Shown: positions 29,633-59,920 of the stretch, one piece after another
Layout: each line of letters starts with the position of its first letter
Numbering within the stretch: position 1 is the stretch's first letter
DNA from: Chloroflexota bacterium
GTDB lineage: Bacteria > Chloroflexota > UBA11872 > VXOZ01
Direction of reading: 5' to 3'
NCBI GenBank assembly: GCA_026710945.1
Contig: JAPOQA010000031.1
Coordinates: forward strand, 50,611-114,610
DNA length: 64,000 nt
The notes under the pieces: model-generated
The model's database searches: none
What the model was told of the DNA's origin: nothing
The model's input: the letters and a program-made list of their open reading frames with translations, nothing else
Position numbers and translations under genes: made by a program

Positions 29633-30805
29633 ATGTCAAGCCTCACTCTAGAGGGCGCTACCAAGACCTTCAAGCGGCCAAGCCCTTTCTCCTGGAAAGG
29701 CATGATCGGGCGGTTCAGAGGCGGTGAAGCAGACGACGTGGTCCTCCCCGACGCTGATGACACCGAAGACGACCTGATTTACGCGCTCAACGGGATTGAT
29801 CTCCAAATCGACGACGGCGAGTCGCTGAGCGTGCTCGGACCTTCCGGCTGCGGCAAGACGACGCTGCTCCGCGTTTTGGCCGGACTAGATTTGCTGGACG
29901 GCGGCAAGGTGCTCTTCGACGGAGAAGACGTAACCACCGTGGGCCCGCAGGATCGCAACGTTGCCATGGTGTTTCAAGACTACGCCCTGTACCCCCACTG
30001 GCAGTCAGAGGATAACTTGGGCTTCTTCTTTCAAATGCACCAGCGCAAGCACGAGATTCCCGAGCGTATACGCATCACCGCGCGGGTCATGGGACTCGGC
30101 TTCGAAACGCTTCTCAGCCAAAAGCCGCCGAAGCTCTCCGGCGGACAACAGCAACGCGTAGCTATCGCGCGCGCGATCATTCGGGACCCACGGACATTCC
30201 TCTTCGATGAGCCGCTCTCGAACCTGGACGCTACGGTGCGCGCCCGTACCCGCGTCGAGATTCGACGCCTGATACAGCGATTCGGCATAACGTCAGTCTA
30301 CGTTACCCACGACCAATCAGAGGCATTCACGATGGGCGACCGCATTGCTGTAATGCATGAGGGCCGCATCTTGCAGGTTGATACCCGCCACCAACTTATC
30401 GAGCGCCCGCTCAACCTCTTCGTCGCCGACTTCATTACGGTGCCGGCCATGAATCTGCTGCCCGGCGTCGTGTATAGAGAGTACGTGGAGATCCACGACC
30501 GCAAGATTACGCCGCCGCCAATCGTGCTGCAACAATATCAGGCCGAACGGGTCACCATCGGCATTCGGCCAACAGACGTTGTGCTGCGATCCGAAAATGA
30601 GGAGGACACGATTCCGGCCAAGATCGAGACCGTGGAACCGCTCATGAGCGATCGCGCAGTTCTGCTCACGGTGCGGGTGGGGCGGTACACTTACCGCATT
30701 CAACGCCCCCAGACGGAGCATCACGAACCCGATACGCTCATCTTCATGGACGTGCCCCCGCACTGCCAGCACGTCTTCGATAGCAAGGGCCGGCGCGTAA
30801 ACTAG
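29633..30805 (+). CDS. ABC transporter ATP-binding protein, MalK/UgpC/MsmX type with a C-terminal TOBE domain, and no cognate permease
   Basis: ORF 29558..30805; ATG at 29633 preceded by GAGGAGG; Walker [10 protein letters not shown], signature [14 protein letters not shown], Walker [11 protein letters not shown]. Confidence 0.85.
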
Positions 30806-31061
30806 CGTGCCGGGCGGCCAATTCCAGAGCCTATTCCTTCATCGACCCAGCGAATTCCTGGTGCCTACGTCTAACTGAAGCTGGAGCAATCGGTACTCCC
30901 ACCCGACCCCTGGATTCCGGCTTGCGCCGGAATGACGGACTCATTCGATCAACCTTCAGCGGACAAGGCTCATTCTGACTGAGCCAGTCTCAGTAGCTCC
31001 AACCATGGCGTGAATTCACGAGTCTCAGTGGTTCGACACTTTTACATTGATGGGTAGCGCA

Positions 31062-31094
31062 GGGTCGCACGGGACGTGCGCGTAACCTGCGCCA
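31062..31094. repeat. variant REP-like hairpin of the GGTAGCGCAGG...CCTGCGCC family, with an enlarged loop
   Basis: gggtagcgcagggtcgcacgggacgtgcgcgtaacctgcgcc lies just downstream of the convergent dehydrogenase gene. Confidence 0.4.
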
Positions 31095-31146
31095 TCTCCC
31101 CGCGCAGTCGCTTACTCTTACCCATCATTGCAATGCTGTTGGCCAC

Positions 31147-32133
31147 TTAGTCGTATTTCAAGAGGACGCCCAGGAATTCATCCTTGCGGTCGCGCAGGCC
31201 CTCGTAGGCCGTTTGCCCCTCAGTGTACGGCAACACGTGTGTAATGAGGGGCTCCACGTTAATGCGTCCGCTTGCCAGTAGCGACCAGAGAAACGGGATG
31301 TCCTGCTCGCGCGTCGCGGCATCAACCGTGCTGGCATGTGCGCCGATGAGGTGCACGCCCGTGCGATGGATGTCAAAGTAGGGATCGAGTTCCAGCTTAT
31401 CCCGTGGACTCCCTAGCAGCACGACGCGCCCGTGGTTTGCTGCAGCTTTGATTGCTAAGTCGATAGTCGGCCCACTCCCCACGGCTTCTACCACAAAATT
31501 CGCACCACGCGGGCCAAGTTCCGGCAGCCAATCGGCAAGCGGCTTTTCACTCAAGTTGAATGCCAAGTCCACGCCGCACGCCTGCGCTTGCCCCAGGCGA
31601 GACGCCGCAAGGTCCGCGGCGGCGACCTGACCGGCTCCCGCCAACCCGCAAAGCTGCGCACAGAGATTGCCCACCAGACCCATACCGATCACAAGTACGT
31701 TTTCACCAAAGTAGACCGGTGCCTGCCGTATCGCCGACAAAGCAATTTGCAGCATAGATAAGAAGGGCGCGTGAGAATCGTGCACTCCTTCCGGCACGGG
31801 CAGCACGGCATCATGACTGAGAAGCGCGTGCGTGGCGTGGCGGCCCCGATGAAAGACGCGTGCCCCGGGGGCGGGATCGGACACGCCATCGCCTACCGCC
31901 AGCACTTCGCCCACAGCGGCGTAACCCGGCCGAAACGGGTACTTGGCATAAGCAAAATCAGGCTCAGCGAAGCCCCGGTGCGTCTCCGTGAACATGGCGA
32001 GCTCCGTGCCCGCGCTAATCAGCGAGAACCGGTTACGTACCAAGACCTCACTGGTGCCTGGTTCGTCCGGGATGGCCAGAGTCTCTGCGACGCAGGTATC
32101 TCTGCTTGGAAAGACTAGCACCTGAGTTTCCAT
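31147..32133 (-). CDS. zinc-binding medium-chain dehydrogenase/reductase (MDR family)
   Basis: 328 aa; GroES-like N-terminal domain, Rossmann fold GMGLVGNLCAQL. Confidence 0.7.
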   Translation of the reverse strand: METQVLVFPSRDTCVAETLAIPDEPGTSEVLVRNRFSLISAGTELAMFTETHRGFAEPDFAYAKYPFRPGYAAVGEVLAVGDGVSDPAPGARVFHRGRHATHALLSHDAVLPVPEGVHDSHAPFLSMLQIALSAIRQAPVYFGENVLVIGMGLVGNLCAQLCGLAGAGQVAAADLAASRLGQAQACGVDLAFNLSEKPLADWLPELGPRGANFVVEAVGSGPTIDLAIKAAANHGRVVLLGSPRDKLELDPYFDIHRTGVHLIGAHASTVDAATREQDIPFLWSLLASGRINVEPLITHVLPYTEGQTAYEGLRDRKDEFLGVLLKYD

Positions 32134-32343
32134 GTGCGCTCCTTTATTGCTCTTGCCTCATTTTGGATGAAACCACGGTCGGCCCCTCGCGCCAGGTGTC
32201 GAAACACAGACTATGCGGTCGTGATGCCGGCCCGGCCCCGTATAACTCAAGCGTTACCTCATTGCGGTACCCACTTGGCCAAACCGCACGATACTCCGTT
32301 GCCACTGGGATTCGTAGCGCGCATCCTGCATTGCGGCAACAGT

Positions 32344-32673
32344 CTAATGGGCGCGCTCTATGAGCCGTGTGAGATTGGCAAGGTGCTCATGGAGCTTGGC
32401 GCGACCTCGCGCACTCAGAGAATACCAAGTTACCGGCCGGCGGTCGCGGAAGGTCTTCTCGACTGCAACATAGCCACCATCTTCCAGCTTGCGCAGATGC
32501 GTCCCAAGGTTGCCGTCCGTTTCGGCGAGAACTTGCTTGAGACGGCTGAATGACATGAATTCATGCTTAGAGAGCAAAACACAGACTGCGAGTCGCACCC
32601 GATGCTCAAGCAGACCGCCAAGTGACGCCAATTCTTCAAGACTGGCGATGTCTGGATCAGCTCGTCTGGTCAC
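32344..32673 (-). CDS. winged-helix transcriptional regulator
   Basis: 109 aa; wHTH pattern SFSRLKQVL...GNLGTHLRKLEDGGYV...WYSLSARGR. Confidence 0.5.
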   Translation of the reverse strand: MTRRADPDIASLEELASLGGLLEHRVRLAVCVLLSKHEFMSFSRLKQVLAETDGNLGTHLRKLEDGGYVAVEKTFRDRRPVTWYSLSARGRAKLHEHLANLTRLIERAH

Positions 32674-33226
32674 GGGGTGTCACTTCAAGATAGCCCAGCG
32701 TCAATAGCGCCACAGCAAACAAGACCCCGGTAATCGTCCACCCATAGTCAGGTACGAACAGGGTGATGACATAGCCTACCCCCGCCACCAGGCCTACTCC
32801 CAGCAAACGACGGTCCAGGTGCAAACCGGCGAGAGAGTACGTTAATGCCAGCAACAGCAGCCAGATTGAACTATAGCCGGACCACGTTAGCTGTTCCGTT
32901 GCAACCAATACGCTACAAAGCAGACCAACACCTAGAAAAGACAGCCAATGCAGGCCCCACCGGATGCCTTCCCAGCTATCCGTCTGGCCGACACTCCGGC
33001 TATGGCGTATGCCCAACCATGCCGATATGACAACACCAAGCGGCGCCGCTACTGTCCAGTACCATCCAATCCAGCGAGGGTCACTGGCGAAATCTACCAG
33101 GGCAAAACCAATGAGCGCAACGGCCGCCCAAAAGACAAAGGTAGCCGTAGGCTGACCGGGCCCAGATCGCTGTGCCACGGCGCGAACGTACGCTACGTCC
33201 TCTCTAAGCTTATCTGTGTCCGACAT
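32657..33226 (-). CDS. hypothetical polytopic membrane protein, co-transcribed with the wHTH regulator
   Basis: ORF 32657..33289; ATG at 33226 preceded by AAGGAGG; 5-6 TM helices; 17-nt overlap with the downstream regulator. Confidence 0.5.
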   Translation of the reverse strand: MSDTDKLREDVAYVRAVAQRSGPGQPTATFVFWAAVALIGFALVDFASDPRWIGWYWTVAAPLGVVISAWLGIRHSRSVGQTDSWEGIRWGLHWLSFLGVGLLCSVLVATEQLTWSGYSSIWLLLLALTYSLAGLHLDRRLLGVGLVAGVGYVITLFVPDYGWTITGVLFAVALLTLGYLEVTPRDQTS

Positions 33227-33359
33227 GACAACCTCCTTTGAATCAAATATTACTCCTATATACCTTGTACTCTGTGTTATAGAGTACATAGCTCAACGAG
33301 TCAAGGGTGAGTCCGATCCGTGTGCTATGAAATGGGGTATCTATACCCGTGAAAAGCGC

Positions 33360-35165
33360 CTAGTGTTCGACGCTTTCCACGTATTCCAACGACTGGTGCC
33401 GGAAGTAGGTGTCGTAGAGTCCGGCGTAGTGGCCGCCGGCGGCTAAGAGTGTTTGGTGGGTGCCTTCTTCCAATATGCGGCCGCTGTCCAAGACGAGGAT
33501 GCGGTCGGCGTGCTGCACCGTGTACAGGCGGTGCGCAATGACGATGGACGTGCGGTCGCGCATGATAGCCTCTATGCCGTCTTGGATCTGGACTTCGGTA
33601 AATGGGTCCACGCTTGCCGTGGCCTCATCCAAAATGAAGACTGCCGGATCGTGCAGCATGACGCGCGCCAGCGCTACAAGTTGGCGCTGGCCCATGGAAA
33701 GGCGCCCGCCGCGCTCGCCGACGTCCGATTCCAGCCCGTTCGGCAAGTCGGCAAGCCAGTCTCCTCCCGCAATGTGCTCCACCGCGCGCAGCACGTCCGC
33801 CTCATTGGCATCCGGCTTGCCATAGCGGACATTCTCCCCCACGGTACCGCTAAAGAGAAAGGGGGATTGCGGCACGATGCCGATCTGCCGACGATAGGAT
33901 GGCAGGTTGAACGTGCGGATGTCACGCCCGTCAACCAGCAGTTGGCCCTCCTGAAACTCATAGAAACGCGCCACCAGCCGCACAATGCTCGTCTTGCCGG
34001 AGCCGGTGTGACCGACCAAAGCAAGGGACTCGCCCGCGTGTATCGTTAGATTGAAGTCGGGGAGTACAGTCTCAGTTGGCAAGTAACTGAAGTTCACGTT
34101 CCTAAACTCAAACCCGCCCTGCACGTTTTCAGCGGAAATGTCGTCGGTCTGCACCACTCGTGATTCTGCGTCTATCAACCCGAATACTCGCTCACTGGCA
34201 GAAAGCCCATTCTGGAATTGGCTCCAGAACGAAGCGATTTGCGTAAGGGGAAACCAGAAGAACATGAGCGCTTGGATAAAAAGGTACCAATCGCCCACGC
34301 TCATAGTGCCGGAGGCCGTGTTCAAACCGCCGAAGTAGACGATGACTGCTGTGCCGATGCCGGCGGTGGCGTTAAAGACGGGAAAAAAGGTATTCAGCAC
34401 AATTCCCTGACGAAAGTTTACGCGATACGCTTGTTCGTTGATGCGGACAAAGTCATCGTGCACGGCCTTCTCTTGGCGAAAGACCTTAGCAACGGCAATA
34501 CCGCTAATAGACTCCTCGATGTGCGCGTTCACCCGCGCCATAATGCGCCGCGAGTGCAGCGACGTTTCGCGGGCAATGCGCCGGAATAGGAGCGAAATGG
34601 CTGCCACGAACGGCGCCATCGCCAAAGTAATTAACCCCAGCTGAAAGTTGATGAACAGCAGCACACCCCCCATAAGCAACACCAGCATGGCTTGGCTGAT
34701 GAGATTCATCGTCAGGGAGACCGTTTCCGCAAAGCCGTCGGTATCGGATGAAACGCGGCTTACCAGCTTGCCGGTCGGCTGGTCGTCAAAGAATGAGAGA
34801 TCGTGCCCCATGGTTGCATTGAAAGCATCCTCTCGAATCTTGAGCGTCACGTTCCCAATTGCCGTGGCGCCAAGCCACTGCCGGAGGAAATTCAAACCCC
34901 ATGAGACGCTGCTCAAGAGCAGAATGGAAGTGATGAGAAGCACCATTACCTGCGTGGCGGGATTGGCAATGACAAGGTCGATCCCGCGTGAAATGAGGAT
35001 CGGTACCGCGGTATCGGTAAGCGAGCCCACGAATACCGCGAGCGCAACAATCAGCATGGGGCGTGTTTGCGGGCGAAAGTAGTTGATGATGCGGCGCAGC
35101 AGCGCGCGATCGCTATACTCGCGATCGTACGCGTCCGCGTCCAGGCCGTCCATCACAAAGCCCAT
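33360..35165 (-). CDS. ABC exporter, fused permease-ATPase (MdlB/MsbA-like), heterodimer partner
   Basis: 601 aa; 6-TM domain plus NBD with GHTGSGKTS, LSMGQRQLVALARV, ILDEATASVD. Confidence 0.85.
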   Translation of the reverse strand: MGFVMDGLDADAYDREYSDRALLRRIINYFRPQTRPMLIVALAVFVGSLTDTAVPILISRGIDLVIANPATQVMVLLITSILLLSSVSWGLNFLRQWLGATAIGNVTLKIREDAFNATMGHDLSFFDDQPTGKLVSRVSSDTDGFAETVSLTMNLISQAMLVLLMGGVLLFINFQLGLITLAMAPFVAAISLLFRRIARETSLHSRRIMARVNAHIEESISGIAVAKVFRQEKAVHDDFVRINEQAYRVNFRQGIVLNTFFPVFNATAGIGTAVIVYFGGLNTASGTMSVGDWYLFIQALMFFWFPLTQIASFWSQFQNGLSASERVFGLIDAESRVVQTDDISAENVQGGFEFRNVNFSYLPTETVLPDFNLTIHAGESLALVGHTGSGKTSIVRLVARFYEFQEGQLLVDGRDIRTFNLPSYRRQIGIVPQSPFLFSGTVGENVRYGKPDANEADVLRAVEHIAGGDWLADLPNGLESDVGERGGRLSMGQRQLVALARVMLHDPAVFILDEATASVDPFTEVQIQDGIEAIMRDRTSIVIAHRLYTVQHADRILVLDSGRILEEGTHQTLLAAGGHYAGLYDTYFRHQSLEYVESVEH

Positions 35166-35214
35166 TGGCTCATCCTCATCGGAAGTGCGGAATTGAAAGT
35201 GTCAGCGGTCTCAG

Positions 35215-35645
35215 GCTTAGGGTAGCGCGGGGGCTTGTCCCCCGCTCCGGGCGCAACCACGCGAGGAGACGCGGATGGATTCCCGTTTTCGCGGGAATGA
35301 CGGATCGGGGATACACCCTCTCTCATCGCCAAGACGTGTTCGATGCGGCTAAACTTCGCCTTTCCTGTGCGGGACACCCCGGCACGTAGCGCGGGGGCTT
35401 GTCCCCCGCTCTTTGAGTTTCGCACTTGGCTCAGAGTAGATGGATTCCCGCTTTCGCGGGAATGACGGATCGGGGGTGTTCCCTCTCTCATCACCAAGAT
35501 GTGTTCGATGTAGCTAAACTTCGCCTTATCTGTGCGGGACACTCCGGCACGTAGCGCGGGGGCTTGTCCCCCGCTCTTGGCACATCGCACATATCGAAGA
35601 TCGGATAGTTTCCCGTTTTCGCGGGATTGACGGCAATTGGAACGG
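35215..35645. repeat. tandem array (~165-bp unit, ~2.7 copies) built from two hairpin families with variable ~27-bp inter-hairpin segments; not CRISPR
   Basis: Units start at 35221, 35384 and 35553 with ggtagcgcgggggcttgtcccccgctc; second hairpin ggattcccgytttcgcgggaatgacgg at 35275, 35443 and 35608; the conserved ~90-bp tail is absent from the last unit. Confidence 0.7.
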
Positions 35646-35695
35646 CTTCCCTGAGCTACAATGCCGTCACCTTGTGCCGCGATTCTACTCATCTA

Positions 35696-37495
35696 CTAGT
35701 CTCCACTGACTGTGGCAGGCATTGCGGCGACATAGCGCTCGTCCCGATGCGCAAAGATGTCGCGGTACGCGGGACTGCGCGCAATGAGTTCCTCATGCGT
35801 GCCTTGGTCCTCCAATTCTCCGCCCCGCAGCACCAGAATGCGGTCGGCCCACCGGATCTGCGAGAGTCGGTGCGTGATGAGAAACGTCGTCCGCCCGTGC
35901 AGAATATTGCGCAGCGCACGCTGAATCTGATCTTCGGTCGCACTGTCGATCGCGCTCGTCGAGTCATCGAGCACCAGTATGCGCGGGTCGGCCAAGAACG
36001 CGCGAGCAATAGCGATGCGTTGCCGCTGTCCGCCGGAGAGCGTCACGCCGCGCTCGCCCACCACCGTGTCGTATCCATCCGTAAAGCCCATGATAAAATC
36101 ATGCGCCTGAGCCTGTTTCGCCACCGCTTCAATCTCCGCACGGCTAACCGGACGCCGCACGCCAAAGGCAATGTTCTCGGCCAGTGTACGTGAAAAGAGA
36201 AAGACATCCTGGTCGATTGTCGCAATCTGCGAGCGTAGTGATTCCATCGACCACACGCGTACGTCGACGCCGTCAATCATCACTTGTCCATCCGAAACCT
36301 CGTAGATACGATTGATGAGCCGGGTGAGGGTGGACTTGCCGGACCCCGTCTGCCCGACGATTGCAACCGTCTCGCCCGGCTTGGCTTTGAAGCTAATGCC
36401 TTTGAGCATATTGGAATCGTGGTATGAGAATGAGACATTGTTGAACACCACCTCGCCTTCCATCTGCCTCTCGATTCCTGCGCGATTCTCGTCTATCTCC
36501 GTCTCCGCATTCAGGATGGCGAGAATGCGGTCCGCCCCGGCCGTGCCGAGCTTGACGAGAGAGAACGCAAAAATGGAAACAAACGTTGGGAATCGAAGCA
36601 TGCCTAGAAAACCCATGAATGTAATGACCTGGCCGAGAGTCAATCCGCCGTTGCTGTAGAGATAGAGTGCGTGGGCAAGGCCGAGCGCTAACGCAAAAGA
36701 AAACATGAGCAGCGGCAGGTAGAGCGCCTGAATCTTGCCCTGTTTTATGAAGAGATCACGGTAGTTTGCCGCCTTGACCCGAAAACGGTTGAATTCCTGC
36801 TGCTCCTGCGCGTTCGACTTAACGACTTCAATGCCCGCAATCGATTCGGTCAGGTTGGCGTTGAGCACGCCGAATTGCGCGCGGAGCGCTCCTGCTACCG
36901 GGCCCAATCGACGCAAGTATCCCCGCAATGCAATGAGAAAGCCGATGAGGAAAAGCACCGGTATCGGCAGCAGCGCCGCATTCAAGAACGCAATGGCGAT
37001 GATGGGTGCCACCATGTTGACGAGCCACTCCGAGAGCAGCAGCAAGCCGGGGTTGACCATGTAGTTGAGCTGCTTTACGTCATTGGTGGCACGCGCCATG
37101 ATGTCGCCAACGCGTTGCTGACCGTGATAAGTCTGGCTCTTACCTAGCAGATTTACGTAAAGTTCGTCGCGCACGTCGCGCTCCATGCGCAGCGCCACAA
37201 TCTCAGCCGTGTAGTTCGCGAGAAGCTGCATTACGCCTCTGAGCACGCTTATGCCGAGAATTGCCAGAGCAAAACCCAGGAGCACGGACACCACGGCGTT
37301 TGCATCTTCGACGGCGTCAAAGGCATCCCCCAGTATCCTCGGTACTTGCACCGCGGCCACCACGACACCGGCTCGAAAGAGGGTGCCAACCACCACGTGG
37401 ACCGGGTAGCGCATCGCATGACTGACCAGCCACCGCGTGACGGAAGAGCGATCATACGTATGTTCGATATCCGGCGTAAACTCGCGGTTTCTCAA
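35696..37495 (-). CDS. ABC exporter, fused permease-ATPase (MdlA-like), heterodimer partner
   Basis: 599 aa; NBD motifs GQTGSGKST, LSGGQRQRIAIARA, LVLDDSTSAID. Confidence 0.85.
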   Translation of the reverse strand: MRNREFTPDIEHTYDRSSVTRWLVSHAMRYPVHVVVGTLFRAGVVVAAVQVPRILGDAFDAVEDANAVVSVLLGFALAILGISVLRGVMQLLANYTAEIVALRMERDVRDELYVNLLGKSQTYHGQQRVGDIMARATNDVKQLNYMVNPGLLLLSEWLVNMVAPIIAIAFLNAALLPIPVLFLIGFLIALRGYLRRLGPVAGALRAQFGVLNANLTESIAGIEVVKSNAQEQQEFNRFRVKAANYRDLFIKQGKIQALYLPLLMFSFALALGLAHALYLYSNGGLTLGQVITFMGFLGMLRFPTFVSIFAFSLVKLGTAGADRILAILNAETEIDENRAGIERQMEGEVVFNNVSFSYHDSNMLKGISFKAKPGETVAIVGQTGSGKSTLTRLINRIYEVSDGQVMIDGVDVRVWSMESLRSQIATIDQDVFLFSRTLAENIAFGVRRPVSRAEIEAVAKQAQAHDFIMGFTDGYDTVVGERGVTLSGGQRQRIAIARAFLADPRILVLDDSTSAIDSATEDQIQRALRNILHGRTTFLITHRLSQIRWADRILVLRGGELEDQGTHEELIARSPAYRDIFAHRDERYVAAMPATVSGD

Positions 37496-37703
37496 CGGAG
37501 TCTCCAGGAAGCATGAACCGTTGCCATCAATTCACTATAACATCCTACAAAAGCTATAAAATCTCCTCAGCTACCGAAATACTCTGCACCGCCCATGCAG
37601 AAGAGCGGCGTCTAAAGGTGAATTGAAGCTTGGCGGCACTTGTTCATTTGCACAGATACTAGGTACATTAGAATGAAGAGCCAGGAGACCTCAGTTATTA
37701 AGA

Positions 37704-38291
37704 GTGGAGCGTGATGTGAAGAGTTTGGACGCGCAACGCCATTGGTGGCAGGTTGGGCGGGTAGTTCTGGGCGTGATGGCGTTTGCCATTTTGCTGGGTG
37801 GTTGTATTGCACAGCCCCAGGGCGTTGTCATCAATACCAAACCTACGCCCACACCGACGCCAGTTGTAGGCAACCCCAATAACGCAACGATCATCGAAGT
37901 CACGGTTGTGGACAACACGGTGCCGCCATCAGGCGTCGGCATTATCTGGATCAATCGCAGCGTAGGCTGGGCACCGTACGAGAGTCCCGGCGACGGTAGG
38001 TTGCCTCCCGATGAGTACGGCGTGCTGGTGTACATAGATGAAGAGCGCATCGGTGTCGTCTGGCCCGACGAAACCGGCGGAATGGGGCCGCGCCCCCTTG
38101 CAATTCCACAGAACGTATGGGGATTTGAGCTCGGCCAGCACACGCTCAAATTCGTCCAGCAAGGTCCTGAGGTGTGGCGAGAGTCTGCACCGATCATACT
38201 TGTGGTAACGGAAGACTTTAAGCCTACCCCCACAGTCCCGCCCAGTCCCACGCCGAAGCCAGTGCCGACACCGTCGCCGAGGCCGTCGTAG
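37704..38291 (+). CDS. secreted lipoprotein with Pro/Thr-rich linkers (hypothetical)
   Basis: 195 aa; GTG start; signal peptide with lipobox LLGGC; PTPTPTP and PSPTPKPVPTPSPRPS linkers flank a ~130-aa domain. Confidence 0.5.
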   Translation: MERDVKSLDAQRHWWQVGRVVLGVMAFAILLGGCIAQPQGVVINTKPTPTPTPVVGNPNNATIIEVTVVDNTVPPSGVGIIWINRSVGWAPYESPGDGRLPPDEYGVLVYIDEERIGVVWPDETGGMGPRPLAIPQNVWGFELGQHTLKFVQQGPEVWRESAPIILVVTEDFKPTPTVPPSPTPKPVPTPSPRPS

Positions 38292-38294
38292 TTA

Positions 38295-39551
38295 ATGTCT
38301 GAATCTCCTAATGGCGGTGTCGGCATCGTGCTGTTGGCCGCGGGGGAGTCCCAGCGGATGGCGGCCTCGTCAACGTCGTCATTGCCGAAAGCGCTGTTGC
38401 CCTGGTTCCGCAGACCGCTGATCCAGTACCAGCTTGAGCAAATTGCAGCGGTCGCCCCGGCGCACGTCGTTGTCGTTACCGGGTTTCATGCCGAGCGCTT
38501 AGCGCCCTACGTTGACGCTGTGGCGGGCATCCATGTAGTGAAAAACCCGAATCCGGAGCGGGGCAGAGCTTCCTCCATTGTGCACGGAGTGCGGGCGCTG
38601 CCCGAGACTCTGTCTGCCATCGCAGCAATCAACGTAGACCAGCCTTGTGCTGCGCCAATTCTCGCAAAACTCATTGCCGCAAGGGCCACAGGCAACCATC
38701 TCATTGCGATCCCGCGGTATCAGGGCGTGCGAGGACATCCTCCACTCTTCGCCAACGCTTTGCGCAGTGAATTGCTGCAGGTTCACGAGAATTCCCAGGG
38801 CCTGAAAGCGGTCACCCGGTCCCATCGCGCAGCAACGGCGTTTGTAGACATCGATGATCCCAGCGTGGTGTGGAATCTCAATACACCGGCTGACTATTAT
38901 CAAGCGCAGCAACAACACATTCTGCTTGCTACAACGAATAGCGCCAAGACCGAGCACCTCGCATGGCTGCTCGAAGGTGTGCCGCTTCGGCGCGTTACGT
39001 TGGCAGAGGCGGGACTACAAAGTGAGTCGCCCCCTTCGGAAGACCAACCAACACTACAAGCAATTGCCGCAAGCAAAGCGATTGCGTGGTCGCGGTCATT
39101 TGGCGGATTGGCGCTTGCATCAGACGGCGGCATTTCTATACCAGCGTTAGGCGACTCTTGGGAAGAGCGCTTAACGGCCCGCTTTGCAGGCAGCCAAGCC
39201 ACAGACAAGCAGCGCGTAGAAGCGCTGTTGGCACTGCTTCGACCCTACCGCTCAGAGGAACGGCTCGCGTACTTTCGTGAGTGCGTAGCACTTGCGAACA
39301 ACGGAACCCTCTTGCAGTCGTGGAGCGCCGAGAGTGCGCCCGGCTTGATCGCCGAGACCTATCGCCCGGACCAGCTCGTCTCCGGTTTTTGGCTGCTGAC
39401 ACTGTGGTGCGACCCGCAATCCGGCAAGCGTCTCGGCGTATTCACACCTGATGACCCTGCGTATCCGGACGGGGCTTGGGCAAGCCTAAAACCCAGCGTG
39501 CGGCAGTTCTTGCTGGGCTATCTTGAGCGCTACCTCAATCCGGCAACGTAA
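38295..39551 (+). CDS. fusion protein: MobA-like nucleotidyltransferase N-terminal domain plus Ham1/RdgB-like (non-canonical NTP pyrophosphatase) C-terminal domain
   Basis: 418 aa; the N-terminus (VLLAAGESQRM...KALLP) matches MobA/MocA-type NTP transferases; the C-terminus has Ham1 motifs (ILLATTNSAKTEHL resembles ATGNxGKxxE; ALASDGGISIPALGD; GFWLL resembles GFGYDPIF). Confidence 0.55.
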   Translation: MSESPNGGVGIVLLAAGESQRMAASSTSSLPKALLPWFRRPLIQYQLEQIAAVAPAHVVVVTGFHAERLAPYVDAVAGIHVVKNPNPERGRASSIVHGVRALPETLSAIAAINVDQPCAAPILAKLIAARATGNHLIAIPRYQGVRGHPPLFANALRSELLQVHENSQGLKAVTRSHRAATAFVDIDDPSVVWNLNTPADYYQAQQQHILLATTNSAKTEHLAWLLEGVPLRRVTLAEAGLQSESPPSEDQPTLQAIAASKAIAWSRSFGGLALASDGGISIPALGDSWEERLTARFAGSQATDKQRVEALLALLRPYRSEERLAYFRECVALANNGTLLQSWSAESAPGLIAETYRPDQLVSGFWLLTLWCDPQSGKRLGVFTPDDPAYPDGAWASLKPSVRQFLLGYLERYLNPAT

Positions 39552-40548
39552 GCGTTGCTTCGGATTGCTTGTCCCGGTCTCCTTCTATCACCACCAACCC
39601 ATCGCCCTCCAGGTCTTGTGCCAGCTCCCACAACCAAGCCGCCTGCGGCCTTACAGGGCCTAGTTCGTGGAGGTGACTTACTATTGCAGCAAAGTTGAGC
39701 GTGTTGCCCGGCGAGCAATCGCGCAGAGCAGCAATGATTCGCCCCCGATAATAACGCCGCGAGCCCGCAAATGTTCCCTGGCTCTTAGGGCGCAGTGAAG
39801 GTAGGTCATAAGTATCTGTCGTCCGCCACGCCTGGCACCACATGGCGAGAGGACAGTGCGGGCAGTCCGGCTTGCGCGACGTGCAGACCGTCGAACCAAG
39901 GTCCATGAGCGCCTGGTTCCAGCGCGCAGATTGTCTCTTGGGTACGAGGCTATCCGCCAAGGCCTGAAGCTGCCGCTCCGTTGGACCTGCGACCCCAAGT
40001 AACTTCTGGAGATCGCCACGCAATACCCTGCCCAGCACGCGCCGCACATTGGTATCCACTACCGCTACCTGTGTGTTACCTAGAAAGCTTAGCAGCGCTC
40101 GTGCGGTATACGGCCCGATTCCGGGCAGACGCAAGAGCGACTGCAAACACATGGGGAATTTGCCGTCATGCTCCTGAACGACAGCCTGTGCCGCGCGATG
40201 AAGATGCACGGCGCGGCGGTTGTAGCCAAGCCCAGCCCACAGGCGAATGACTTCTGCCGTCGGTGCAGCCGCTAGCCGTCGCATGGTCGGGAATCGTTCG
40301 ATGAAGGCATTGTACTTCGGTATCACGCGCTCGACTTGGGTCTGTTGCAGCATCATTTCAGCCAGGAATTTGCGATACGGACTCTTCGTTTGTCGCCAGG
40401 GCAATTCCCTGCGATTAAGGCGGTACCAGCCTAACAACGCGTCCTGGAAGTGCCGCACGACTTCAGCCCGCGTCAACTGCAGCGTGCCGTTGGTCGTCAG
40501 CGAACAATACTCGCCCCTGTCGTGCTTTCTTTCACGTTTGGTTAGCAT
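39535..40548 (-). CDS. mutY: A/G-specific adenine DNA glycosylase
   Basis: ORF 39535..40674; probable start at MLTKRE (40548); HhH-GPD motif (LPGIGPYTARALLSF), 4Fe-4S cluster loop CTSRKPDCPHCPLAMWC, and C-terminal NUDIX-like domain. Confidence 0.8.
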   Translation of the reverse strand: MLTKRERKHDRGEYCSLTTNGTLQLTRAEVVRHFQDALLGWYRLNRRELPWRQTKSPYRKFLAEMMLQQTQVERVIPKYNAFIERFPTMRRLAAAPTAEVIRLWAGLGYNRRAVHLHRAAQAVVQEHDGKFPMCLQSLLRLPGIGPYTARALLSFLGNTQVAVVDTNVRRVLGRVLRGDLQKLLGVAGPTERQLQALADSLVPKRQSARWNQALMDLGSTVCTSRKPDCPHCPLAMWCQAWRTTDTYDLPSLRPKSQGTFAGSRRYYRGRIIAALRDCSPGNTLNFAAIVSHLHELGPVRPQAAWLWELAQDLEGDGLVVIEGDRDKQSEATLTLPD

Positions 40549-52510: not shown

Positions 52511-52540
52511 CCGTCATTCCCGCTTCCGCGGGAATCCATC
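52511..52540. repeat. REP-like hairpin (gtcattcccgcttccgcgggaatcc family), inverted relative to the copies in the 35.2-35.6 kb array
   Basis: ccgtcattcccgcttccgcgggaatccatc; it generates the spurious '...VIPASAGIH...' reading frame of ORF 52198..52680. Confidence 0.5.
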
Positions 52541-54904: not shown

Positions 54905-54945
54905 CTGTAGCGCGGGGACTTGTCCCCCGCTTCTTGGCGCATAAG
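54905..54945. repeat. solitary copy of the array hairpin, gtagcgcggggacttgtcccccgcttcttggcgcat
   Basis: Matches the first ~40 bp of the repeat unit at 35553 (gtagcgcgggggcttgtcccccgctcttggcacat); located between alr and the methyltransferase gene. Confidence 0.5.
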
Positions 54946-59745: not shown

Positions 59746-59920
59746 CGGCACATCTGGTTGGGAAGACCGCGGACCATGCCGTCAACACGACCGCACTTGG
59801 GCAGTACTCGGCGACCAAACGTAGTCTATTCGTGCTGGCGCCGCGACCTTCGATTGGGACCAGCCTCTATAGATTCGGCCCCAGGCTTTAGGAGAGTCGG
59901 CCACAGGCTTTAGATTTACT

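Follow-up and report, generated by a model that had tools for sequence, protein, structure and literature searches.

Bacterial interspersed mosaic elements (BIMEs) of Escherichia coli are mosaics of repetitive extragenic palindromic (REP) sequences, exemplified by BIME-2 and the malE–malF REPs, and the REPs combined in them are Y and Z, two variants of a single REP. A 530-nt gap between two genes for ATP-binding cassette (ABC) half-transporters of a Chloroflexota bacterium (GenBank assembly GCA_026710945.1, contig JAPOQA010000031.1, positions 50,611 to 114,610; this 64-kb stretch is hereafter called the window) contains a tandem array of two hairpins, termed A and B. Since the E. coli Y and Z sequences are absent, the array is an analogue of these elements and not an enterobacterial BIME. 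The two hairpins resemble two other described kinds of repeat. GTAG-tagged REPs consist of an unpaired GTAG tag at the end followed by a GC-rich imperfect palindrome of 20–40 bp, occur extragenically in multiple copies, flank genes for Y1_Tnp transposases known as REP-associated tyrosine transposases (RAYTs) (PMC2817692, PMC3116915, PMC3733652), and are already on record in Chloroflexi (PMC3733652). The CGTC-1 REP is defined by a CGTC tag, an 8-bp stem starting with AT, a 4-nt loop and a CCA tail, and has been equated with dRS3 (PMC3733652), which is defined in PMC1797815. In the Neisseria intergenic mosaic elements (NIMEs), dRS3-type inverted repeats of 20 bp bracket repeated segments of 50–150 bp, and these elements are syntenic, vary in number between genomes and have been stated not to be observed outside Neisseria (PMC1797815). 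The Neisseria Transformation Sequence (NTS) and the degenerate Ssn-related motif (SRM) are defined in PMC11893778, where SsnA, a GIY-YIG nuclease (cd10448) of 94 amino acids, binds and cuts NTS only as single-stranded DNA and in one orientation only. Ssn genes are mostly flanked by their own motif, and SRM-rich genomes are enriched among host-associated bacteria (Chenal et al., PMC11893778). In the array at the ABC operon junction, a heterodimer made up of one GTAG REP and one CGTC-1/NTS repeat recurs in tandem, both being known kinds of element. The array is very probably a REP cluster of the BIME/NIME kind, made of members of two unrelated genome-wide families of selfish hairpins that were inserted and then tandemly duplicated.

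The material analysed comprises the window and about 22 kb around the locus in each relative, the loci being designated by L numbers. The gap lies between the minus-strand genes at 35696–37495 and 33360–35165, and Tandem Repeats Finder places the array at 35222–35633 with a period of 165, 2.5 copies, 81% matches and a score of 552. Together with the pattern matches and shuffle controls given below, this bears out the tandem hairpin array described in an earlier note on this DNA. In the sense of the genes, the order is stop codon, 62 nt, B, 31 nt and A, then twice an 82-nt tail, B, 30–31 nt and A, and finally 56 nt and ATG. The array thus reads GTAG→, 30 nt, ←CGTC, 82 nt, reiterated, with the CGTC and GTAG tags of each B–spacer–A pair pointing outwards. 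The unit anatomy given in the earlier note holds overall, except that the tail is 82 nt long instead of about 90 nt and the segment described as non-conserved measures 30–31 nt. Regularly alternating REPs, linkers and variable reiteration, with 1–4 units among species, are the properties of a BIME or REP cluster. As in E. coli BIMEs, REPs of two types in opposed orientation alternate with two kinds of linker, the set is repeated to a variable extent, and it lies within an operon, between genes for ABC transporters; the hairpins of the array, however, come from separate superfamilies (GTAG and CGTC), and its unit is much longer (165 bp). The array also has the layout of a NIME, in that the B copies recur every 165 nt, enclose a repeated segment of about 138 nt and vary in number; the comparison is one of layout. 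Unlike NIMEs, the array is single and short, has one type of RS-like segment, which contains a GTAG REP, and does not neighbour surface-antigen genes.

Hairpin A (GTAGCGCGGGGGCTTGTCCCCCGC) has the structure GTAG-CGCGGGGG-CTTGT-CCCCCGC, in which the unpaired GTAG tag is followed by a palindrome with a 7-bp stem and a 5-nt loop, with a folding energy of −9.4 to −10.9 kcal/mol as DNA. The search pattern GTAGCGCGGGGGCTTGTCCCCCGCT matches exactly at three sites in the array, all with the tag on the plus strand, namely copy 1 nearest the downstream gene (35222–35246), copy 2 (35386–35410), which is followed on the plus strand by TCTTTGAGTT, and copy 3 (35551–35575), whose fold was computed. A lone copy with one mismatch lies on the plus strand at 54907–54931 between two minus-strand open reading frames (ORFs), and none of 100 shuffled sequences contains any match. 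Hairpin A is thus present four times in the window, and about 390 kb of sequence from the clade contributes 14 further copies located elsewhere than in the ABC gap; all of these copies are placed between long ORFs or within spurious ORFs made by the repeats. The exact 24-mer of A occurs in at least 120 metagenome stretches with a GC content of 0.34–0.72, frequently as inverted pairs or tandem sets, and a scan of viral contigs gave no match. In four metagenome contigs carrying the identical 24-mer (L120, L173, L092 and L171), the hairpin flanks a RAYT-like gene. The Y1_Tnp ORFs at L120:360–905 (Pfam E-value of 2.8e-10) and L173:4293–4880 (9.4e-10) have A-type dimers on both sides, and this bracketing of a transposase gene is the classic REP/RAYT arrangement. 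By its sequence, hairpin A is a GTAG-tagged REP, a kind of element that RAYT (IS200-like Y1) transposases, acting on single-stranded DNA, mobilise and maintain. The array differs from known GTAG REPs and from REPINs (two inverted REPs of one family able to fold into a single long hairpin) in that its A copies are all direct, head-to-tail repeats, each of which is partnered with a CGTC repeat and not with an inverted A; inverted A pairs are known at other loci. It also differs from the REP/RAYT arrangement in that no RAYT was located in the 64-kb window of the source genome.

Several other arrangements of A-type hairpins are found in the collected sequences. In L120:1–960 (Ga0315289_10006768), the RAYT-like Y1_Tnp ORF is bracketed by heterodimers of the REP variants GGGGCCTTGTGCCCC and GGGGGCTTGTCCCCC, and the heterodimer is reiterated three times on one side of the ORF with a period of 124 nt. 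Head-to-tail mini-arrays of A alone are present at L006:9314–9413, L009:1641–1811 and L009:4356–4457 with periods of 38, 49 and 39 nt, respectively, and some of their copies are cut off after the loop (GTCCCCAAT). In L093:1432–1800 (Ga0080006_1190713), a GIY-YIG ORF of 94 amino acids (Pfam E-value of 4.8e-18) adjoins an inverted A pair.

Hairpin B (CGTCATTCCCGCGAAAGCGGGAATCCA; minus-strand oligonucleotide sequence CCGTCATTCCCGCGAAAGCGGGAATCCATC) reads CGTC-ATTCCCGC-GAAA-GCGGGAAT-CCA on the sense strand of the genes, with an 8-bp stem and a 4-nt loop. This satisfies the definition of CGTC-1/dRS3, including ATTCCC-N8-GGGAAT. The search pattern GGATTCCCGYTTTCGCGGGAATGACGG matches exactly at 35277 and 35442 and with three mismatches at 35607 and 30912, and no shuffled sequence was matched. 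The copies in the array all lie on the minus strand. Copy 2 (35440–35468; CGTCATTCCCGCGAAAGCGGGAATCCAT on the minus strand) fits the dRS3 and SRM patterns as regular expressions, and its stretch 35440–35467 agrees with the 28-nt NTS (CGTCATTCCCGCGMAVGCGGGAATCYRG) at 27 of 28 positions, the threshold for NTS/SRM assignment being at most one mismatch to NTS or a fit to the degenerate SRM pattern. Copy 1 (35275–35303) is NTS-like, with two mismatches to NTS over 35275–35302, and fits both SRM and dRS3. Copy 3, nearest the upstream gene (35607–35633; CCGTCAATCCCGCGAAAACGGGAAACT on the minus strand), is a degenerate CGTC-1/NTS with the three mismatches to the B pattern. The lone copy at 30910–30938 on the minus strand (CGTCATTCCGGCGCAAGCCGGAATCCAG) carries a compensatory change in the stem, lies between convergent ORFs and has an ortholog at L002:14229; over 30910–30937 it has two mismatches to NTS and is the third copy in the window, together with copies 1 and 2, that fits SRM. 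Another lone copy, inverted and with a flipped loop, is found on the plus strand at 52511–52537 (CGTCATTCCCGCTTCCGCGGGAATCC). The statement in the earlier note that both hairpins also occur singly elsewhere is therefore correct, with A at 54907 and B at 30912 and, inverted, at 52511.

The dRS3 pattern is matched 18 times in the loci of the clade and not once in 918 kb of outgroup loci. A 25-nt stretch of B is identical to sequence upstream of pilE of Neisseria gonorrhoeae, and B-like copies are present in records of Azospirillum, a sphingomonad, Legionella, Neisseria, Photobacterium and others. Among 26 distinct copies from the clade, 93% of the cells in the stem are paired, and four of the eight base pairs are compensated on both sides (11 cells). 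None of 500 shuffles reaches these values, and slid controls are paired in 16–50% of cells. Hairpin A is nearly invariant, and so it is uninformative on compensatory change. Judged from these agreements, B is a CGTC-1 REP of the same family as the Neisseria dRS3/NTS, which Ssn GIY-YIG nucleases target as single-stranded DNA and in one orientation. It differs from the described members in that the 2013 listing of CGTC repeats names five phyla and Chloroflexota is not one of them (PMC3733652), that neither the window nor the loci of the relatives yielded a cognate Ssn gene, and that its density is far below that in pathogenic Neisseria. At L071:9859–9900 and in the orthologous gap of L012, a different GC-rich palindrome (TCGCCCCCGTGCGGGGGCG) interrupts the loop and right arm of B, which looks like a nested insertion of a third type of hairpin.

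The identity of B raises the possibility that the array acts at the DNA level, a resident Ssn cutting B in incoming or exposed single-stranded DNA and thereby modulating recombination or transformation around the exporter genes. In favour of such a role, B satisfies the definitions of NTS, SRM and dRS3, and the array shares the NIME layout, in which dRS3-type repeats are set apart by repeated segments (about 138 nt here) and the copy number is dynamic between genomes. The reported enrichment of SRM-rich genomes among host-associated bacteria also agrees with the clade, in which some metagenome-assembled genomes (MAGs) carry sponge- or coral-type record names and to which a contig from the Aplysina aerophoba sponge metagenome MKWU with a B–A doublet is related. 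Against it stand the lack of an Ssn homologue in the window and in the loci of the relatives, the presence of only one cluster in 64 kb and the decay of the B copies in L002, and this role is unlikely.

A scan of genome contigs with the downstream ABC protein identified Chloroflexota MAGs, with L002 at 99% amino acid identity and 15 others at 81–95%. The two ABC genes are adjacent in all 16 of these close relatives, and the gaps between them, which were compared with blastn, range from 178 to 750 nt. The commonest state is a lone B–spacer–A pair at the same position (L015, L008, L011, L005, L003, L007 and L071), and A lies at the orthologous position about 40–60 nt ahead of the ATG in most close relatives. 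Three units are present in the window genome, L002 and L004, four in L013, and neither hairpin is present in L025. Decay is also seen: half of A is lost in L010, B has decayed in L014, and B is interrupted by the GC-rich palindrome in L012 and L071. The copy-number comparison among relatives that the earlier note had proposed thus gives a range of 0 to 4 units, and the copy number of the hairpins is labile. In 58 more distant relatives with the gene pair, the median gap is only 8.5 nt, with many 1-nt overlaps of the form TGATG, suggesting that the hairpins are additions to an originally tight junction. Other A and B copies of the clade are placed in gaps between ORFs, several of them at convergent gene ends and in either orientation. 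Extrapolation from about 390 kb of mostly orthologous sequence gives on the order of 100 copies of each family per genome.

The window gap and its relatives also provide observations on the assembly and the junction themselves. L001 (ENA ERZ27241798 k141_187839, 2.9 kb) encodes an identical downstream protein, and this short-read contig stops inside the array, 85 nt before the gene; the upstream ABC protein has no exact match on record among assemblies. L188:2407–2496 (MKWU01031955.1, Aplysina aerophoba sponge metagenome) contains B, 30 nt and A in the same orientation and spacing but with another spacer, at a locus unrelated to the ABC genes, and a similar pair is present in L009. The L188 pair hints that B–A may behave as a composite unit. 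In some Anaerolineae at about 60% identity (L023:9500–10010, L016, L018 and L032), the same ABC–ABC junction is expanded to 470–1260 nt. The long ABC–ABC gaps of these more distant Anaerolineae were checked for A and B and contain neither, and the L023 junction carries unrelated repeats (TTAGAGGTTGGAGGTTAGAAG) together with a 28-nt inverted repeat, which raises the possibility that the junction is a recurrent landing site.

The hairpins and the sequence between them behave differently in evolution. In ten species, identity is 93% for A and 88% for B, both values being somewhat inflated because pattern matching that allowed up to 5–6 mismatches was used to find the copies, whereas it is 50–56% for the spacer and both flanks, which is about the aligner baseline for shuffled sequence, and 61% at third codon positions in the adjacent gene. 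The two flanks are unique sequence. The one from the upstream stop codon to the first B (62 nt, 35634–35695, minus strand) shows about 56% identity between species, and the one ahead of the downstream ATG (56 nt, 35166–35221, minus strand) has a GAGGA motif resembling a Shine–Dalgarno sequence. In the comparison of the window with L002, identity is 90.5% over the whole gap and 91.5–93.7% at third codon positions, and two B copies of L002 already contain changes that break the stem. These three observations, invariant hairpins, a gap that diverges at the neutral rate and the decaying B copies of L002, suggest that the hairpins are held at the level of the family and are not parts of a finely tuned local RNA. 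The family-level constraint may consist in enzyme recognition, homogenisation or re-insertion, with the linkers probably drifting at an approximately neutral rate.

The linkers also bear on how the array may have grown. The offsets of the B copies from the stop codon are 65, 230 and 395 nt in the window genome, and the same offsets are found in L004 and L013. The tails of the window (copy 1 at 35304–35385 and copy 2 at 35469–35550) are 87% identical to each other, and copy 2 is 58–70% identical to the tails of L004 and L013. All eight tail copies are 81–82 nt long. Copies from the same lineage, which means from one species or from the window genome and the closely related L002, are 71–89% identical, and those from different lineages only 58–70%. 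Judged by eye, the tail begins like the sequence lying downstream of the last A and ends like that upstream of the first B, as expected from head-to-tail duplication of almost the whole ancestral gap. In the likely scheme, an ancestor of the Chloroflexota clade gained a B–30 nt–A pair in the tightly coupled junction of the half-transporter genes. The 165-bp segment consisting of the pair and its flanking DNA would then have been reiterated head-to-tail by unequal recombination or replication slippage, and the copy number would have risen and fallen to give 0 to 4 units among species. The hairpins would have stayed nearly invariant through recognition by proteins, if cognate enzymes are active in the source genome, and/or through homogenisation, while the linkers would drift neutrally.

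The spacers between A and B are of three types. Variant 1 (30 nt, 35247–35276) is that of the lone L015 unit, variant 2 (31 nt, 35411–35441) is shared with L002, with 86% identity to the corresponding L002 spacer and about 50–55% to the other variants, and variant 3 (31 nt, 35576–35606) is that of all L004 and L013 units, with an identity to them of 0.79–0.89. Each of the three variants is therefore kept in other species, and the description of this segment as non-conserved does not stand. Short palindromic repeats separated by segments of about 30 nt that differ between units might suggest a CRISPR-like or other spacer-acquiring array. However, two repeats alternate at intervals of 30 and 82 nt, the 82-nt interval is itself repeated, the three apparent spacers are kept at the same positions in other species, and both repeats are dispersed singly, so that the probability of such an array is close to nil. 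Hypervariable CRISPR-like inserts between A and B were rejected as each spacer variant is conserved across species. The earlier note had likewise judged the array not to be CRISPR-like, which agrees with the two alternating repeats and with uneven intervals that are conserved between units and species.

The flanking genes encode two ABC half-transporters with a mutual identity of 28%. The upstream protein (35696–37495, minus strand; 599 amino acids as listed) matches ABC_membrane and ABC_tran of Pfam with E-values of 3.8e-29 and 2.3e-32, respectively, and the downstream protein (33360–35165, minus strand; 601 amino acids) with 4.4e-41 and 3.2e-29. REPs in E. coli operons, as between malE and malF, stabilise the upstream mRNA, and BIMEs can attenuate transcription. 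The earlier note had proposed an attenuator, a terminator or an mRNA-stability element, and a cis-acting RNA element dedicated to the ABC operon and selected for such a role would account for the conserved position and orientation of the B–spacer–A pair in most of the 16 relatives. The sense RNA forms two stable stem-loops per unit (−13.6 and −17.3 kcal/mol, compared with −9 to −11 kcal/mol as DNA), and the fold of the whole gap has a z score of −2.8; the established effects of REPs on mRNA point in the same direction. Nevertheless, a scan for promoters and terminators found no terminator-like site on the minus (sense) strand in the gap, and the sole such site there, at 35391–35409, is on the plus strand and antisense to the genes. 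No U-tract follows A or B in the sense orientation, and Rfam 15 gives no match at E ≤ 1 for positions 30000–40000 of the window. Both hairpins are also present in very different organisms and at loci unrelated to this one, where they lie in either orientation. The operon is intact across 0 to 4 units, including L025 without either hairpin, L010 with half of A deleted and L014, L012 and L071 with B decayed or interrupted, and the B copies of L002 are decaying in a gap that diverges from that of the window about as fast as synonymous sites. It is therefore improbable that the array is a dedicated RNA element, and its description as primarily an attenuator, terminator or stability element is unsupported, given the membership of both hairpins in dispersed, widespread REP families linked to enzymes that act on DNA, the missing U-tract and the synonymous-like divergence of the gap. 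The earlier note had also taken absence of the array from a close relative with an intact operon to argue against a regulatory role, and L025 is such a relative, which speaks against a required role. By analogy, an effect on the operon mRNA is plausible as a secondary matter, the likeliest by-product being that the upstream message is shielded from 3′–5′ decay or that the downstream gene is partly uncoupled or attenuated.

The list of ORFs and their translations contains a stop-free frame of 179 codons that spans the whole gap (35153–35692, minus strand) and is probably not a protein gene. One alternative to a non-coding REP cluster is that the gap is translated, either into a real small protein or as a relay frame that carries ribosomes between the half-transporter genes. 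The frame continuing from the upstream stop codon has 0–1 stops in six species (the window genome, L004, L013, L007, L014 and L005), compared with 3–8 in the other five frames, and in the long gaps only 0.3–1.5% of mononucleotide shuffles leave this frame free of stops. An ATG lies 3–6 nt past the upstream stop, the end of the frame overlaps or abuts the downstream ATG, the period of 165 nt corresponds to 55 codons, the differences in gap length (96, 144 and 147 nt) are multiples of three, and the outgroup genes overlap. In contrast, substitutions are spread evenly over the codon positions (32, 29 and 30; 46, 40 and 43; 54, 51 and 68), the product has no match in Pfam and is rich in Arg, Gly and Ala as is typical of non-coding GC-rich DNA, and the frame is broken in nine species, namely L002, where it is frameshifted, L015, L008, L011, L010, L003, L071, L006 and L009. 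The codon-position counts led to the rejection of a conserved protein, in agreement with the missing Pfam match, the frameshift in L002 and the nine species without an open frame. Since none of the sense frames has a stop within the hairpins and the repeats do not count as independent samples, chance helped by these two properties is the default explanation for the open frame, and translation of the gap is very unlikely. The relay version, in which selection would keep the frame open and in phase through the array while the sequence is unconstrained and the product irrelevant, has a similarly slim chance. If it were true, ribosomes translating across the hairpins would melt them and keep Rho-type polarity from arising, and the two subunits of the heterodimer would still be made in a coupled 1:1 ratio.

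Several observations weigh against a REP cluster formed by insertion and tandem duplication. Searches by phmmer of the 64-kb window and of the relatives' loci (22 kb each) detected no RAYT or GIY-YIG gene, with probes that did detect true Y1_Tnp and GIY-YIG ORFs elsewhere (the latter in L093 and L095), and the window and loci L002–L081 contain no ORF resembling Y1_Tnp. All A and B copies of the array have a single orientation relative to the genes and the pair keeps its position in most species, which would also fit a selected local function. The 82-nt tail and the 165-nt period are unusually free of insertions and deletions for neutrally drifting DNA, and the inflated estimate of hairpin conservation belongs on the same side. 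A REP cluster of the BIME/NIME kind nevertheless has by far the highest probability in our assessment. The window also contains a 22-nt tandem repeat (CCAGCCTCTAGGAGAGTCGGCC) of about 2.5 copies at 59860–59913, which is unrelated to A and B.

In annotation terms, the 179-amino-acid ORF and the hypothetical proteins like it in these MAGs are translated REP arrays, and assembly from short reads is interrupted at the array, as in L001. The presence of CGTC-1/NTS hairpins almost letter for letter in Chloroflexota extends their range beyond the phyla of the 2013 listing, and, with some members of the clade derived from sponges or corals, it is in keeping with the enrichment that has been reported for host-associated bacteria. 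A GTAG REP joined to a CGTC REP can make up a fixed heterodimer, and this pair has persisted at one syntenic position in species with nearly saturated synonymous sites. Such persistence bears on the view that REP populations reside in genomes over long periods and pass on by vertical inheritance. With 0 to 4 units among species, the junction of the heterodimeric ABC exporter is a natural series for following the effects of REP arrays on operon expression.

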